Assembly (NCBI GenBank): GCA_016783125.1
Contig: JADHXE010000001.1
Location: 124 to 64,123, forward strand
DNA: 64,000 nt
Origin: Anaerolineales bacterium
GTDB lineage: Bacteria; Chloroflexota; Anaerolineae; Anaerolineales; UBA11858
Direction: 5' to 3'
Part shown: positions 9,656-28,562 of the stretch, in pieces
Layout: every line of letters starts with the position of its first letter
Numbering within the stretch: the first letter of the stretch is position 1
Program-made: the position numbers and the translations under genes
Notes under the pieces: generated by a model
Told to the model about the DNA's origin: nothing
Databases searched by the model: none
Seen by the model: the letters and a program-made list of their open reading frames with translations, nothing else

Positions 9656-11917
9656 TTATGGTTGTAATATTACCTCCGCCCCATTGGTTGCTTTGCAAAC
9701 ATAAATATTAGGATCTAATCCCGTGGCTTCTGCGTAAGATGTGTAGATATTTTCCACAAATATCGCCACGGCATCTTCATGAACCAATGCTATCGCACAG
9801 CCTCCAAAACCACCCCCAGTCATTCGTGCCCCAATACAGCCTGGTTGAGTTTGTGCCAAATGAACAATGATATTGAGTTCATCGTTGGTGATTTCGAAAT
9901 CATCCCGCATACTGATGTGGCTGGCGTTCATCAGCTGCCCCATCTCGACGGCGTTGCTAGCTGACATAGCGGCTACCGCTTGCAACACACGCTCGTTTTC
10001 GCTGATCACGTGGCGAGCGCGCTGCCGAGGGAGTTCTTCCAGGTCGGCTGAGCGTAGATTGAATTCATCAATGGTGACATCGCGCAAATGCGAGACACCA
10101 AAATAATTTGCGGCTGCCTCACATTGCTCACGCCTTTCGTTATAACCCGAATCGGTGTGCGCGTGTCGGGTGGCGGTGTCCATGATGACTACAGCTGTTT
10201 CGTTCGGAAGCGGGATGTGCCGCGTGGAAAGATCGCGGCAGTCGATCAAGAGAGCATGGTCAGCCTTTCCGGCGGCAGAAATCATCTGATCCATAATGCC
10301 GGTGTTAGCACCCACCCACTTATTTTCAGCGCGTTGCCCAATTCTCGCCATGATGCCAGGGTTAATTTGCCAGCCGCCAACCACAGCAAATGCCTGGGTC
10401 GCAGCCATCTCCAAGGCTGCCGAGGATGAAAGCCCAGCTCCGATTGGGATATCACTGCTCATAACCCCTTCCCAGCCTTCGAGATGAAAACATACTTCTT
10501 GAAACGCCCAGGCTACCCCGCGAACATATTCTCCCCAACCTTCTTTGTGTGTGATCGCATCGAGAGAAAACTCGGTGGGGTCTTCGAATTCAACTGAATA
10601 CACTAACACCCGGCGATCATCTCTGGGCCGTAAAGCGATCCAGATGGCGCGGTCGATGGCCATAGGCAGCACAAAGCCGTCGTTGTAGTCGGTGTGTTCG
10701 CCGATCAGGTTGACCCGGCCGGGGGCGCGCACGATGAGTTGGGGTGCTGCGCCAAAACAGGATGTGAATTTTTGGGTGATGAGAGCTTTCATGGAGTTAG
10801 GGCTGTATTTCTTGTAGTGTTGTGCGGGTAAGGCGCGTAATCGTTCGGCGGCTTGTTCGGCGGTCAGATCGCGTTGGGCTTCGGCCATCATTTCGTAACC
10901 GACCATGAATTTCTTGACCGTGGCTGAACGCAGCAACGGCGGATAGAAGTGAGCGTGGAGTTGCCAATGCGCAGAATCAACCTCCCGCAGGTTTGTTGAA
11001 GCTGGTGCGGGTGCATTGTTACTAACCTGCGGGAGGTTAGGCGCGCCATGCCAGCCCATCGAGTAGGGGAACGATGTTTCGAACAGGTTATCGTATTTCG
11101 TTAGCAATGCTTTCAGAACTTGGGCCAACGCATCCCGCTCGGATGGCATCAAATCAGGAAGGCGCAGCACATGTCGGCGGGGGAGCAGCAAAATCTCAAA
11201 GGGCCAGATCGCCCAATAGGGCACTACTGCCAGCCAGTCGTCATTTTCAACCACTGTGCGCTCCCCGCTCTCCACTTCACGTTCCATGTAATCTAGCAAT
11301 AAAGACCTGCCATGCGTAGCGAAATATTCTTTTTGATGGCGGTCTTCTTTGGTTGGTTCGTTGGGCAATACATTCTGCGCCCAGATTTGCCCGTGTGGAT
11401 GCGGGTTGGAGCTGCCCATCATGGCGCCCTTGTTCTCGAAGACCTGTACCCACTGGTATTGCTGACCGAGTTCAGCCGTCTGTTCAGCCCAGACATCGAC
11501 CACGCGGCGAATGTCTTCGACAGGCATTTCGGGCAAGGTGAGATCGTGGCGCGGCGAAAAGCAGATTACCCGGCTGGTGCCCCTCAGGCTTTGGGTTTGG
11601 AAGAGAGCATTTGTTGATGCTTCAGCCTGGGGTGTGTCGGGCAGCAGGGCGGCGAAATCGTTGGTGAAAACGAAAGTGTTTTCGTACTGTGGGTTGCGCA
11701 CTCCCCCGGCGCGCTGGTTGCCAGGGCACAAATAGCAGCCGGGATCGTAGGAAGGATGCTTGTACAGCGGAGCTTTCTCGACCTGACCCTGCCAAGGTCG
11801 TTTGGTACGGTGAGGGGATACCAGTACCCACTCATCGGTCAGTGGGTTGTAGCGGCGGTAGGAATGGTTAGTGGGGTTGAATATAGCGTTTATTTTTTCA
11901 ACCATGGGATATCTCAA
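9656..11917 (-). CDS. galT-galK: Fusion protein: galactose-1-phosphate uridylyltransferase (N-terminal) plus galactokinase (C-terminal)
   Basis: The GalT part has 'CYLCPGN' and '[13 protein letters not shown]' (HxHxQ). The GalK part has '[22 protein letters not shown]', '[13 protein letters not shown]' and '[12 protein letters not shown]'. It is a single 753-codon frame, with the junction near nt 10780-10830. Confidence 0.9.
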
Positions 11918-11976
11918 AGGCTGTGCTGGCTAATTTGACGGCGGATAACTTGGTGGGCGTCACTTGAAAGTATTGC

Positions 11977-12093
11977 TCAGATGGAGCGGCGTGAAGCGGC
12001 AGAGCATAATTGCCAGGCGCACCAGTGCAATGTGCCGCCGATCTGTTGGTAAACACGCTCAAAGCGATGGCGATATTGCTGGGTCACTTCCAT
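11977..12093 (-). CDS. Hypothetical 38-aa small ORF
   Basis: ATG 12093 is preceded by AGGAGA with a 7-nt spacer. The product is 'MEVTQQYRHRFERVYQQIGGTLHWCAWQLCSAASRRSI'. I recognise no family. It lies between the URO-D paralog and galT-galK on the same strand. Confidence 0.2.
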   Translation of the reverse strand: MEVTQQYRHRFERVYQQIGGTLHWCAWQLCSAASRRSI

Positions 12094-12157
12094 GCAGAAA
12101 TCTCCTACTGATGTTATGAGGGCTGCTGCGCATTCTGGATTGCACCGCTCTGGCAGT

Positions 12158-26997: not shown

Positions 26998-27007
26998 GAT
27001 AAGCCAG

Positions 27008-27916
27008 ATGAATATTGAAGTACTCAACTACAAAGGGTGGGCGAATTCTCTACGGCTTTCCAATCATTTGGTTGATCTCGTAATTCTGACAGAGATTGGA
27101 CCTCGGATTATTCGCTACGGATTTTTAGGAGAAGACAATCTCTTCGTTGAGCTTTCTGAGACCCTGGGTCATAAAGGAGGAAATACCTGGCATGTGTATG
27201 GGGGGCATCGCCTCTCTCATGCCCCACAGGCAGACCCACGTTCCCATTATCCCGACAATTTTCCTGTTGAGTATATAGAAAAAGATGGCTTTCTACAAGT
27301 GGTTCAATCTGTGGAACCCACCAACGGAATACAAAAAGAACTGGACATTTATTTAGATGCCCACTCCACGAAAGTCACCGTTGTGCATCGCTTATATAAT
27401 CGAAACCTTTGGCCTGTAGAACTGGCTCCCTGGGCGTTATCGGCAATGTCCCCAGGGGGGATGGCAGTTGCGCCCTTACCGCCGCGTGGCACGCATCATG
27501 ATGACTTGCAACCAACAGGATGTGTGTCGCTTTGGGCATATACTGATATGTCAGATTCCAAGTGGAAATGGGGGCGTGAATACATCTTTTTATCCCAAGA
27601 TACTAAGAATCAGGAACCTCAAAAAGCTGGATTTTGGGTGCCTGCTGGATGGACAGCTTATCATTGGGGTGATGTTTTGTTTATAAAACAATTTGAGATC
27701 AAGTCCGGCAAGTATTATCCAGATAAAAATGTAAATGTGGAATTCTACACAGATCACAGTCTACTTGAAGTAGAAACTTTAGGTCCTCTGACATGTGTAG
27801 AGCCAGATCAATTTGTTGAGCATGTGGAAACATGGTCACTTCATAAAGGGGTCCCCGCAATAGAAACTGAAAGCTCAGTACGCCACGCGGTTACTCCATT
27901 GTTATCAAACAAATAA
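27008..27916 (+). CDS. Conserved hypothetical protein, aldose-epimerase/DUF4380-like beta-sandwich (tentative)
   Basis: 302 aa. 'IGPRIIRYGF..NLF', 'GGHRLSHAPQ' and 'EVETLGPL' resemble mutarotase-like domains. It starts 10 nt after URO-D paralog 3. Confidence 0.45.
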   Translation: MNIEVLNYKGWANSLRLSNHLVDLVILTEIGPRIIRYGFLGEDNLFVELSETLGHKGGNTWHVYGGHRLSHAPQADPRSHYPDNFPVEYIEKDGFLQVVQSVEPTNGIQKELDIYLDAHSTKVTVVHRLYNRNLWPVELAPWALSAMSPGGMAVAPLPPRGTHHDDLQPTGCVSLWAYTDMSDSKWKWGREYIFLSQDTKNQEPQKAGFWVPAGWTAYHWGDVLFIKQFEIKSGKYYPDKNVNVEFYTDHSLLEVETLGPLTCVEPDQFVEHVETWSLHKGVPAIETESSVRHAVTPLLSNK

Positions 27917-27926
27917 GGAGAATATC

Positions 27927-28562
27927 ATGACAGAAAATATGACTACCATTTACAATAGCATCATCGAAGGCGCAAAGGACGAGACCCTGGTGAGTGTACA
28001 ACAAGCACTTGATGCTGGTCTCGACCCCGGCAAAGTGTTGAATGAAGGCATGATTTCAGCAATGAAAGAGGTAGGTAGGCTCTTCGAAGAAGGTGAATTC
28101 TTCGTTCCTGAAATGCTCATTGCTGCTCGTGCCATGCAAGCAGGCCTGGGGATACTGAGACCTTTACTCGTAGACTCTGGCATTGAGCCAGTAGGTAAGG
28201 TAGTCATCGGCACCGTCAAAGGTGATTTGCACGATATCGGCAAAAACCTTGTAGCTATGATGATGGAAGGGGCTGGATTCGAAGTGATTGATCTGGGGAC
28301 GGATGTATCACCAGAGCAATTCGTTGAAGCAGCCAAAGCCCATCAACCGGATATCATCGGTATGTCCGCACTGCTTACAACTACAATGCCCTCAATGGAA
28401 GCTACCATCAAAGCATTGCAAGAAGCCGGTGTGCGGAAGAGTATTAAGGTGCTGGTTGGTGGTGCACCAGTTACCGATGCATTTGCAGATAAAATCAAAG
28501 CTGATGGTTTCTCCCCTGATGCCAGTCGGGCGGCTAATTTAGCGAAATCACTCTTGACGTAA
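27927..28562 (+). CDS. Corrinoid (cobalamin-binding) methyl-carrier protein, MtaC/MtbC/MtsB type
   Basis: 211 aa with a helical cap plus a Rossmann domain. DxHxxG is 'GDLHDIGKN' (nt 28224-28241), SxL is 'MSALLTTT', and GG is 'KVLVGGAPV'. An AAGGAGA Shine-Dalgarno sequence lies upstream. Confidence 0.9.
   Translation: MTENMTTIYNSIIEGAKDETLVSVQQALDAGLDPGKVLNEGMISAMKEVGRLFEEGEFFVPEMLIAARAMQAGLGILRPLLVDSGIEPVGKVVIGTVKGDLHDIGKNLVAMMMEGAGFEVIDLGTDVSPEQFVEAAKAHQPDIIGMSALLTTTMPSMEATIKALQEAGVRKSIKVLVGGAPVTDAFADKIKADGFSPDASRAANLAKSLLT

Follow-up and report, generated by a model that had tools for sequence, protein, structure and literature searches.

A probable corrinoid methyltransferase gene set in a sugar-catabolism locus of an uncultured Anaerolineales bacterium and its possible role in oxygen-independent sugar O-demethylation

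We analysed a 64-kb stretch of DNA (the window) from a metagenome-assembled genome (MAG) of an uncultured Anaerolineales bacterium (Chloroflexota), in which a locus at 9656-28562 combines three paralogs of the uroporphyrinogen decarboxylase (URO-D) fold and a small corrinoid protein with genes for sugar uptake and catabolism. The minus strand encodes a GalT-GalK fusion, URO-D1, an Opp/Dpp-type ATP-binding cassette (ABC) importer with a family-5 solute-binding protein, a LacI-family repressor, URO-D2, a BadF/NagK-type sugar kinase and a cupin-type hexose-6-phosphate isomerase (GPI). Divergent from these lie DeoR- and AraC-family regulators, URO-D3, a TTE1925-family mutarotase-like protein and the corrinoid protein (Table 1). 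On the evidence below, the locus very probably encodes a corrinoid methyltransferase system, and this system is probably tied in function to sugar catabolism. That it forms a methyl-transfer relay within a sugar regulon, serving the oxygen-independent O-demethylation of methylated hexoses, is a reading to which we give an about even chance.

The open reading frames (ORFs) of the window were assigned by Pfam and NCBIfam profile searches. An earlier, sequence-only reading had listed the same genes; every ORF was recovered in place, and both databases agree with each assignment, including PF01208 in the three paralogs and PF02607 with PF02310 in the 211-aa protein. The overlaps it had described are likewise present: base 21925 is common to the URO-D2 and kinase genes, and the kinase and GPI genes share 4 nt (22914-22917). 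The importer genes (13544-17445) overlap or are separated by 0-12 nt. Its description of the minus-strand genes as a nearly gap-free string is valid for such sub-operons only, because the remaining intergenic gaps on that strand measure 87-297 nt. On the plus strand, the mutarotase-like gene is set off by the claimed 10-nt gaps from URO-D3 on one side and from the corrinoid gene on the other, which places URO-D3 two genes upstream of its putative partner. The whole gene order is repeated on ENA metagenome contigs, for example the identical contig L001 (contigs and loci used for comparison carry L numbers), where the AraC regulator is called as a 305-aa gene.

Table 1 Features of the locus and of its surroundings in the 64-kb window
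Feature	Position	Strand	Profile match or remark
GalT-GalK fusion, 753 aa	9656-11917	-	PF01087, PF02744, PF10509, PF00288, PF08544
URO-D paralog 1 (URO-D1), 362 aa	12158-13246	-	PF01208 1e-27
Opp/Dpp-type ABC importer, 4 genes	13544-17445	-	Two ABC_tran+oligo_HPY ATPases, two BPD_transp_1 permeases
Family-5 solute-binding protein, 627 aa	17673-19556	-	SBP_bac_5, PF00496 6.8e-52
LacI-family repressor	19644-20663	-	PF00356+PF13377
Perfect 11-bp palindrome TGTTACCGGTC-ACGT-GACCGGTAACA	20709-20734		Between URO-D2 stop and LacI start
URO-D paralog 2 (URO-D2), 373 aa	20804-21925	-	PF01208 2.4e-18
BadF/NagK-type sugar kinase, 330 aa	21925-22917	-	PF01869 (BcrAD_BadFG) 1.5e-46
Cupin-type hexose-6-phosphate isomerase (GPI), 199 aa	22914-23513	-	PF06560 5.7e-28
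DeoR-family regulator	23717-24553	+	PF00455 + PF08220
AraC-family regulator	24534-25451	+	PF00165, PF12833, PF02311; start uncertain, 24453 GTG or 24534
URO-D paralog 3 (URO-D3), 425 aa	25720-26997	+	PF01208 1.9e-16
TTE1925-family mutarotase-like protein, 302 aa	27008-27916	+	NF052227
Corrinoid (B12) methyl-carrier protein, 211 aa	27927-28562	+	PF02607 3.5e-21 + PF02310 8.4e-32
1524-aa ORF	48457-53031	-	
RibBA	55879-57114		Riboflavin operon
RibD	57776-59143		Riboflavin operon

The 211-aa protein comprises an N-terminal cap and a Rossmann B12 domain and scores 202.8 bits against TIGR02370. The B12 motifs noted earlier are all in place, with DLHDIG (DxHxxG) at 28224-28241, SALLTTT at 28365-28385 and VLVGGAPV at 28449-28472. 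Its closest solved relative is the Moorella cobalamin-binding protein 1y80 (E 2.5e-62), and further ones are the trimethylamine corrinoid protein MttC (7xcn) and the B12 domain of MetH; the corrinoid protein of the Desulfitobacterium hafniense O-demethylase (4jgi) was matched at E 2.5e-39. All these matches mark it as a corrinoid protein of the usual methyl-carrier type. Its 80 nearest relatives from metagenomes (52-70% identity) stand in mixed contexts, some of them in URO-D clusters, indicative of a generic carrier that gives no information on the substrate. We therefore dropped the corrinoid protein as a diagnostic marker of the system. No cobalamin riboswitch was found in the window, where the one riboswitch detected is of the FMN type.

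The three URO-D paralogs share 27-35% pairwise identity and are, judged by sequence, old duplicates. Genuine HemE identity is ruled out by the profile scores, as the sequence-only reading had supposed: against TIGR01464, with a cut-off of 303 bits, URO-D1 reaches 21.2 bits, URO-D3 reaches 17.8 bits and URO-D2 gives no match. MtaA/CmuA-type models outscore the hemE model in all three, with 82.9 bits for URO-D1, 48.5 for URO-D2 and 35.5-38 for URO-D3. For TIGR01463 the respective values are 82.9, 48.5 and 35.5 bits (cut-off 235), and for the MtaA model NF040654 they are 63.1, 24.9 and 29.7 bits (cut-off 400). Since no paralog reaches any equivalog cut-off, none is MtaA or MtbA either. The solved MtaA structure 4ay7 is the best PDB match of URO-D1 (E 3.8e-11). 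An AlphaFold (AF2) model of URO-D3, with a predicted local distance difference test (pLDDT) score of 88.7, matched MtaA first, then HemE, then MetE, and in the fold search the URO-D fold was also shared, more distantly, with sugar isomerases. The NCBI record of URO-D3, a 100% identical MAG protein, is annotated 'methyltransferase'; neither URO-D1 nor URO-D3 has close homologs in the plasmid collection searched.

The metal site sets these proteins apart from MtaA. In the alignment of URO-D1 to 4ay7, H-I-C-G becomes H-T-D-G and the second Cys (P-G-C-G) becomes His, the latter change being uninformative because HemE has the same His. The His-Cys-Cys zinc site of MtaA is not kept in any of the three paralogs, all of which carry H-x-D-G. 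Across a 38-member alignment of the three paralog families, the His and Gly of the H-x-(D/C)-G motif are invariant. The Asp at the MtaA zinc-Cys position is residue 312 of URO-D3 (window 26653-26655); Asp and Cys variants of URO-D3 both occur within sugar clusters, and switching between D and C at one position is the behaviour expected of a metal ligand. According to Kountz & Balskus (PMC10418091), S-methyltransferases of the UroD superfamily have His-Cys-Cys, while in O-methyltransferases one or both Cys are replaced by Asp/Glu or by non-ligands. The window paralogs, by their predicted ligands, fit the O-methyltransferase pattern. An mlp-type S-/Se-methyltransferase was ruled out for them, given Asp instead of Cys and no sulfur or selenium neighbours.

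The accompanying genes point to sugars. The GalT half of the fusion scores 585 bits against NF008724 (cut-off 448) and 548.5 bits against TIGR00209 (cut-off 102.1), and the GalK half 375 bits against TIGR00131 gal_kin (cut-off 227). The two halves are 64% and 48% identical to the separate, adjacent GalT and GalK genes of L089. We propose that released galactose enters the Leloir pathway through the fusion; a gene for UDP-glucose 4-epimerase (GalE) was not found in the locus. The closest solved relatives of the binding protein are mannoside-, cellobiose- and laminarin-binding proteins of Thermotoga and a chitooligosaccharide-binding protein of Vibrio, and it is thus predicted to belong to the carbohydrate-binding clade and not to the peptide binders. 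The kinase matches NagK_SO3507 at 137 bits, below the cut-off. A role of this BadF/BcrAD protein as corrinoid redox activator was set aside, as its best family match is N-acetylglucosamine kinase and it has the sugar-kinase-like motifs GTGSSC and GGWGELISDEGS.

The mutarotase-like protein matches NF052227 at E 8.6e-87 and 291 bits, below the cut-off of 550, and has no sequence match in the PDB. A full-text literature search returned nothing on the TTE1925 family; an ortholog directly follows URO-D3 in L005. The LacI repressor is 37% identical to the LacI of L085, and the palindrome between its gene and URO-D2 may serve as a LacI-type operator or as a terminator. It is not a repeated operator, as its half-site has no second mismatch-free copy in the window.

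We then compared neighbourhoods in other genomes. A scan of one genome per species gave 537 URO-D3 relatives, of which the best 80 (61-90% identical) were analysed; these come from Chloroflexota, Acidobacteriota, Planctomycetota, KSB1, Bacillota and Actinomycetota MAGs. Neighbours were labelled from simple ORF calls by phmmer with proteins of the window and of annotated loci, and key neighbours by Pfam; of the genes left unlabelled, only a part was examined. In the gene orders below, Corr denotes the corrinoid gene. The co-localisation of URO-D, corrinoid and sugar genes on which the sequence-only reading was built proved to be kept in other genomes, despite altered gene order and transporter type.

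The first arrangement, seen in Chloroflexota (L069, L075), reads [LacI-like]-URO-D3-double periplasmic binding protein-RbsA-RbsC-Corr-URO-D1-aldose epimerase-URODb389, the last being a further URO-D family. L083 has this order minus the corrinoid gene, L066 is shortened to URO-D3, binding protein and ATPase, and L076, from a Bacillota MAG, is a variant with an additional FGGY kinase. L085 reads Aldose_epim-CUT2 ABC-unk371-Corr-URO-D1-LacI with URO-D3 divergent, and L089 holds ABC-permease-Corr-URO-D1-Aldose_epim-URO-D-unk371-GalK-GalT-URO-D3 in one single-strand operon. Orthologs in this arrangement are 68-75% (URO-D1), 68-76% (URO-D3) and 59-64% (Corr) identical to the window proteins.

The second arrangement reads LacI-isomerase (Fucose_iso_C)-M24-FGGY kinase-class II aldolase/epimerase-URO-D1-(Corr)-unk370-binding protein-ABC-permease and has GalK or GalT in its vicinity. 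In L094 and L109 it includes Corr between URO-D1 and unk370, with GalT further on; the gaps around Corr in L094 are 8-24 nt. Its isomerase-kinase-PF00596 trio resembles the L-arabinose AraA/B/D route. A Peptidase_M24 gene of the creatinase/prolidase fold is conserved between isomerase and FGGY kinase in the URO-D1-unk370 operons (L094 6501-7607; L176 6344-7438; L109). On a JGI contig, a glycyl-radical enzyme and its activase (15567-18412) lie directly downstream of a URO-D1-unk370-ABC operon and upstream of GalK.

Altogether, sugar transport or catabolism genes accompany URO-D1 in nine of 11 distinct ortholog loci, and a tenth (L093) has FGGY and AraA fragments. A corrinoid gene adjoins URO-D1 in six of the 11, including L085, L089, L069, L075 and L107. 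The link persists although gene order, mutarotase family and transporter class all vary, the importer being of the Opp type here and a CUT2-type monosaccharide ABC importer elsewhere, which argues for function over chance. The tightest neighbour of URO-D1 is unk370, a 370-aa family without Pfam match (L085 5780-6895; L089 6696-7811; L094 11758-12870), which has no copy in the window. It is a divergent URO-D-like family (hhalign probability 90%, E 1.5e-6) that keeps D...ISP...H-x-D-G. The URO-D1, URO-D2, URO-D3, URODb389 and unk370 families are 25-35% identical to one another, and no NCBIfam model matched any of them at its cut-off.

Orthologs of URO-D2 (61-66% identical; L090-L092) also lie in sugar operons, with a short-chain dehydrogenase/reductase (SDR), a fucose-isomerase-like protein (Fucose_iso), DUF4432, an alcohol dehydrogenase, an FGGY kinase and an ABC importer. 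On the metagenomic contig L117, a URO-D2-like gene that is more remote in sequence (phmmer score 198) occurs together with a fucose-isomerase-like gene and a corrinoid gene. Additionally, a GH2 beta-galactosidase gene adjoins URO-D3 in L072, GH2-like genes precede URO-D3 in L067 and L046, and in L131 Corr and a URO-D gene flank an apiosidase-like gene.

URO-D3 behaves differently from the other two paralogs. It is unusually well conserved (61-68% identity across phyla), occurs with many different partners or alone, and adjoins a corrinoid gene in 12 of the 42 loci with enough flanking sequence. In Acidobacteria, L073 has the order MtaB-Corr-URO-D3 and L040 carries MtaB, RACo, Corr and URO-D3. 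Other Acidobacteria clusters end in URO-D3 and read homocysteine (Hcy) methyltransferase-DUF1638-several distant URO-D genes-RACo activase-Corr-URO-D3. The same components, with an Hcy S-methyltransferase domain, are combined in L027 (3-1392), L042 (2234-3097), L165 and L175, which include loci from outside the Acidobacteria, and clusters of this type look like complete methyl-to-methionine relays.

In corrinoid methyltransferase systems, substrate specificity lies with methyltransferase I (MT I), and several systems can share one corrinoid protein and one methyltransferase II (MT II) (PMC13391211). As URO-D3 takes the MtaA slot in L073 and MT II is shareable, we read URO-D3 and the corrinoid protein as a common back end. 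URO-D3 is accordingly best read as a predicted MT II-like component and not as a sugar-specific enzyme, and URO-D1 (with unk370 and URODb389 elsewhere) and URO-D2 are the methyltransferases linked to sugar genes and are probably substrate-specific. We infer this split of roles from gene context. The sequence-only reading had cast all three paralogs in one sugar-demethylation pathway. Its corrinoid relay and its sugar link are supported, but the paralogs are not interchangeable, and URO-D3 also occurs in MtaB-corrinoid operons.

In the route we propose, the family-5 binding protein and the ABC importer would bring in a methylated sugar or short oligosaccharide, with expression governed by the LacI, DeoR and AraC regulators. 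URO-D1, beside GalT-GalK, and URO-D2, whose translation is coupled to that of the kinase and the cupin isomerase, would each act as a substrate-specific MT I. The ether oxygen would be polarised by a metal bound to His-x-Asp, and the methyl group would then pass to Co(I) of the 211-aa protein. URO-D3, as MT II, would unload methyl-Co(III) onto an acceptor. Candidates are tetrahydrofolate, homocysteine or another thiol, homocysteine being included because Hcy-methyltransferase genes adjoin related corrinoid genes. The mutarotase-like protein may anomerise the freed sugar, which would pass into the Leloir pathway through GalK-GalT or be converted to fructose-6-phosphate by the kinase and the isomerase. 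For URO-D1, a galacto-configured methyl sugar is suggested by the galactose and arabinose genes that recur in the clusters. It is the gene context from which we infer a sugar methyl ether as the donor. More broadly, and with somewhat less than even confidence, we suggest that URO-D1, URO-D2, URODb389 and unk370 are previously unrecognised corrinoid-dependent sugar O-demethylases, widespread in Chloroflexota and present in other phyla, which would pass methyl groups from galactose, arabinose and other sugars through a shared corrinoid protein and URO-D3 into one-carbon or methionine metabolism.

Several observations weigh against sugar O-demethylation. Alkyl methyl ethers are harder to cleave than the aryl methyl ethers used by the known O-demethylases. 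The importer is of an oligosaccharide type, yet no glycoside hydrolase is encoded in the locus. A Cys ligand (H-x-C-G) is present in 63 of 67 scored URO-D3 orthologs (loci within L005-L084), Asp being found in the window lineage and a few relatives. A linked corrinoid gene is missing from otherwise equivalent URO-D1 clusters (L083, L076, L176-L178 and JGI contigs), and none was found within 9 kb in the three URO-D2-ortholog clusters examined (3/3). Relatives of the corrinoid protein also lie beside MttB-family genes, beside Hcy S-methyltransferase, RACo and DUF1638 genes, or alone among housekeeping genes. The 64-kb window itself contains no RACo/RamA activase (tblastn with the RACo-like protein of L039; Pfam), no pterin-binding tetrahydrofolate methyltransferase domain among the scanned ORFs and no Hcy S-methyltransferase domain (Pfam scan and tblastn). 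A RACo activase is present in the clusters of Acidobacteria relatives, and here an activase could be encoded elsewhere in the genome. The relay put forward by the sequence-only reading is thus qualified on three counts: the unlinked URO-D2 orthologs, the unrelated systems served by corrinoid relatives, and a window without activase or acceptor enzyme.

The methyl donor might not be a sugar at all but a methoxylated aromatic, a phenolic glycoside or methanol, in which case the position among sugar genes would reflect shared regulation or chance. The Acidobacteria clusters give this some weight, as URO-D3 there stands with MtaB, RACo, DUF1638 and Hcy methyltransferase and without recognisable sugar genes, a further point against sugar as the substrate. 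The substrates of known UroD-superfamily O-demethylases are aryl methyl ethers (PMC10418091), and expression of genes for methanol and methoxy demethylation has been reported for Acidobacteriota of Stordalen Mire (PMC10805028). In contrast, URO-D1 lies within same-strand sugar operons in nine to ten of 11 distinct loci, with shuffled gene order and two ABC transporter classes; LacI-type regulators and GalK/GalT recur, and no aromatic-catabolism genes were seen. We regard a non-sugar donor as unlikely.

A rather unlikely option is that the sugar-linked proteins (URO-D1, URO-D2, unk370 and URODb389) work independently of corrinoid, by MetE-like methyl transfer, isomerisation or decarboxylation, and that only URO-D3 and Corr form a methyl-transfer pair, serving something else. 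The fold shared with MetE and sugar isomerases would allow for this, and several URO-D1-unk370 operons and all examined URO-D2-ortholog operons have no linked corrinoid gene. However, where Corr is present it sits between URO-D1 and unk370 (L094) or adjoins URO-D1; moreover, the proteins lack the HemE signature and score highest with the MtaA-type profile. Orphan corrinoid genes exist (L099, L116, L129) and unlinked carriers are common, so an unlinked carrier is plausible, which counts against corrinoid independence. A uronate decarboxylase (galacturonate to arabinose) was rejected by reasoning as chemically implausible for the URO-D fold and as leaving the corrinoid protein unexplained.

The substrate could also be a sugar whose methyl group is more labile than a ring methyl ether, being bound as a glycoside (anomeric O-methyl), as an ester or through sulfur. 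An anomeric alkoxide or a carboxylate is the better leaving group, and most URO-D3 orthologs keep the Cys ligand. A mutarotase-type gene is found in every cluster type (TTE1925-like here; Aldose_epim in L085, L089, L069, L075 and L083; in L090-L092 DUF4432, which we take to be mutarotase-like), which fits the release of a single anomer. But mutarotase genes normally accompany galactokinase in any galactose operon, methyl glycosides are naturally rare and normally hydrolysed, GalK/GalT would be superfluous for a uronate product, and the window paralogs have Asp, not Cys. We hold a labile methyl donor to be fairly improbable. A relay running in reverse, as biosynthetic sugar O-methylation or methyl shuttling between sugars, is highly improbable: corrinoid half-reactions are reversible in vitro, and PMC10418091 includes one reverse-direction assay, yet the surrounding genes are those of catabolism (importer, repressors, kinases, Leloir enzymes, isomerase) and the locus has no glycosyltransferase or export genes.

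We compared the locus with four known systems. Like the aryl O-demethylases (Acetobacterium dehalogenans OdmABD/VdmB, D. hafniense, Moorella MtvABC, Methermicoccus MtoABCD), it pairs UroD-superfamily proteins, there as MT I, with a small corrinoid protein, replaces the Cys ligand and would use oxygen-free chemistry, the comparison being made by the published ligand rule. The PDB searches turned up no solved structure of an OdmB/VdmB-type MT I. In contrast to those systems and their phenyl methyl ether substrates, it lies in a sugar uptake and catabolism context and has neither a pterin-binding MT II nor an activase. The methanogen MtaB-MtaC-MtaA system provides the best sequence and fold match, MtaA, whose position URO-D3 occupies in L073; the window, however, has no MtaB, the His-Cys-Cys site is lost and equivalog scores are far below cut-off. 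Methanol activation is a precedent for an aliphatic C-O methyl passing to Co(I) with the help of a metal. To our knowledge, Chloroflexota are not expected to contain coenzyme M. The type 1 mlp clusters (Kountz & Balskus, PMC10418091) likewise have several MtaA-like UroD paralogs with one corrinoid protein and no tetrahydrofolate methyltransferase. They are found mainly in Firmicutes and carry Mlp2 and Mlp3, a Ram/RACE activase, His-Cys-Cys sites and sulfur/selenium neighbours, whereas our locus has no activase, His-Asp sites and sugar-gene neighbours.

Methylated sugars are common in nature. Red-algal galactans contain 6-O-methyl-galactose, pectin RG-II contains 2-O-methyl-fucose and 2-O-methyl-xylose, and methylated hexoses occur in bacterial polysaccharides; 3-O-methyl-galactose and 3-O-methyl-rhamnose are known from algae and lower plants. 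Sugars so modified are barred from normal catabolism by the methyl group, and the only demethylation route found is the O2-dependent P450 6-O-methyl-D-galactose demethylase of marine porphyran degraders (PMC6292453). That enzyme has the role proposed here, freeing a galactose unit for catabolism, but by unrelated families, cofactor and chemistry, namely O2-dependent monooxygenation with release of formaldehyde; no P450, ferredoxin or reductase was found in the locus by Pfam. As the sequence-only reading had supposed, no corrinoid-dependent sugar demethylation is described in the full-text literature searched, whose coverage excludes most subscription journals. If true, our proposal would supply an anaerobic counterpart of the P450 sugar demethylase for anoxic sediments, digesters, peat and guts. 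It would also add a new substrate class for corrinoid methyltransferases and a hidden methyl source for anaerobic one-carbon metabolism, and give a function to very large families, with thousands of matches per search, now labelled 'uroporphyrinogen decarboxylase family protein'.

Truncated resolvase-like ORFs on the minus strand bracket the locus (8822-9196 and 28893-29327). A mobile island bounded by repeats was considered and rejected, since the two ORFs share no DNA or protein similarity. The GC content across the locus is 0.45-0.55, a variation that suggests mosaic assembly by gene transfer. To the right lie DUF5372 and HicB-like antitoxin genes, annotated from L001 and listed with the minus-strand ORFs 30153-30494 and 31376-31732. 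An 892-aa ORF (3943-6621) and a 457-aa ORF (34199-35572), both on the minus strand, have no Pfam match. Further along the window, an FMN riboswitch (RF00050, 102 bits) occupies 59081-59232 on the minus strand at the 5' end of the riboflavin operon, and the right half of the window is rich in two-component and GGDEF signalling genes.

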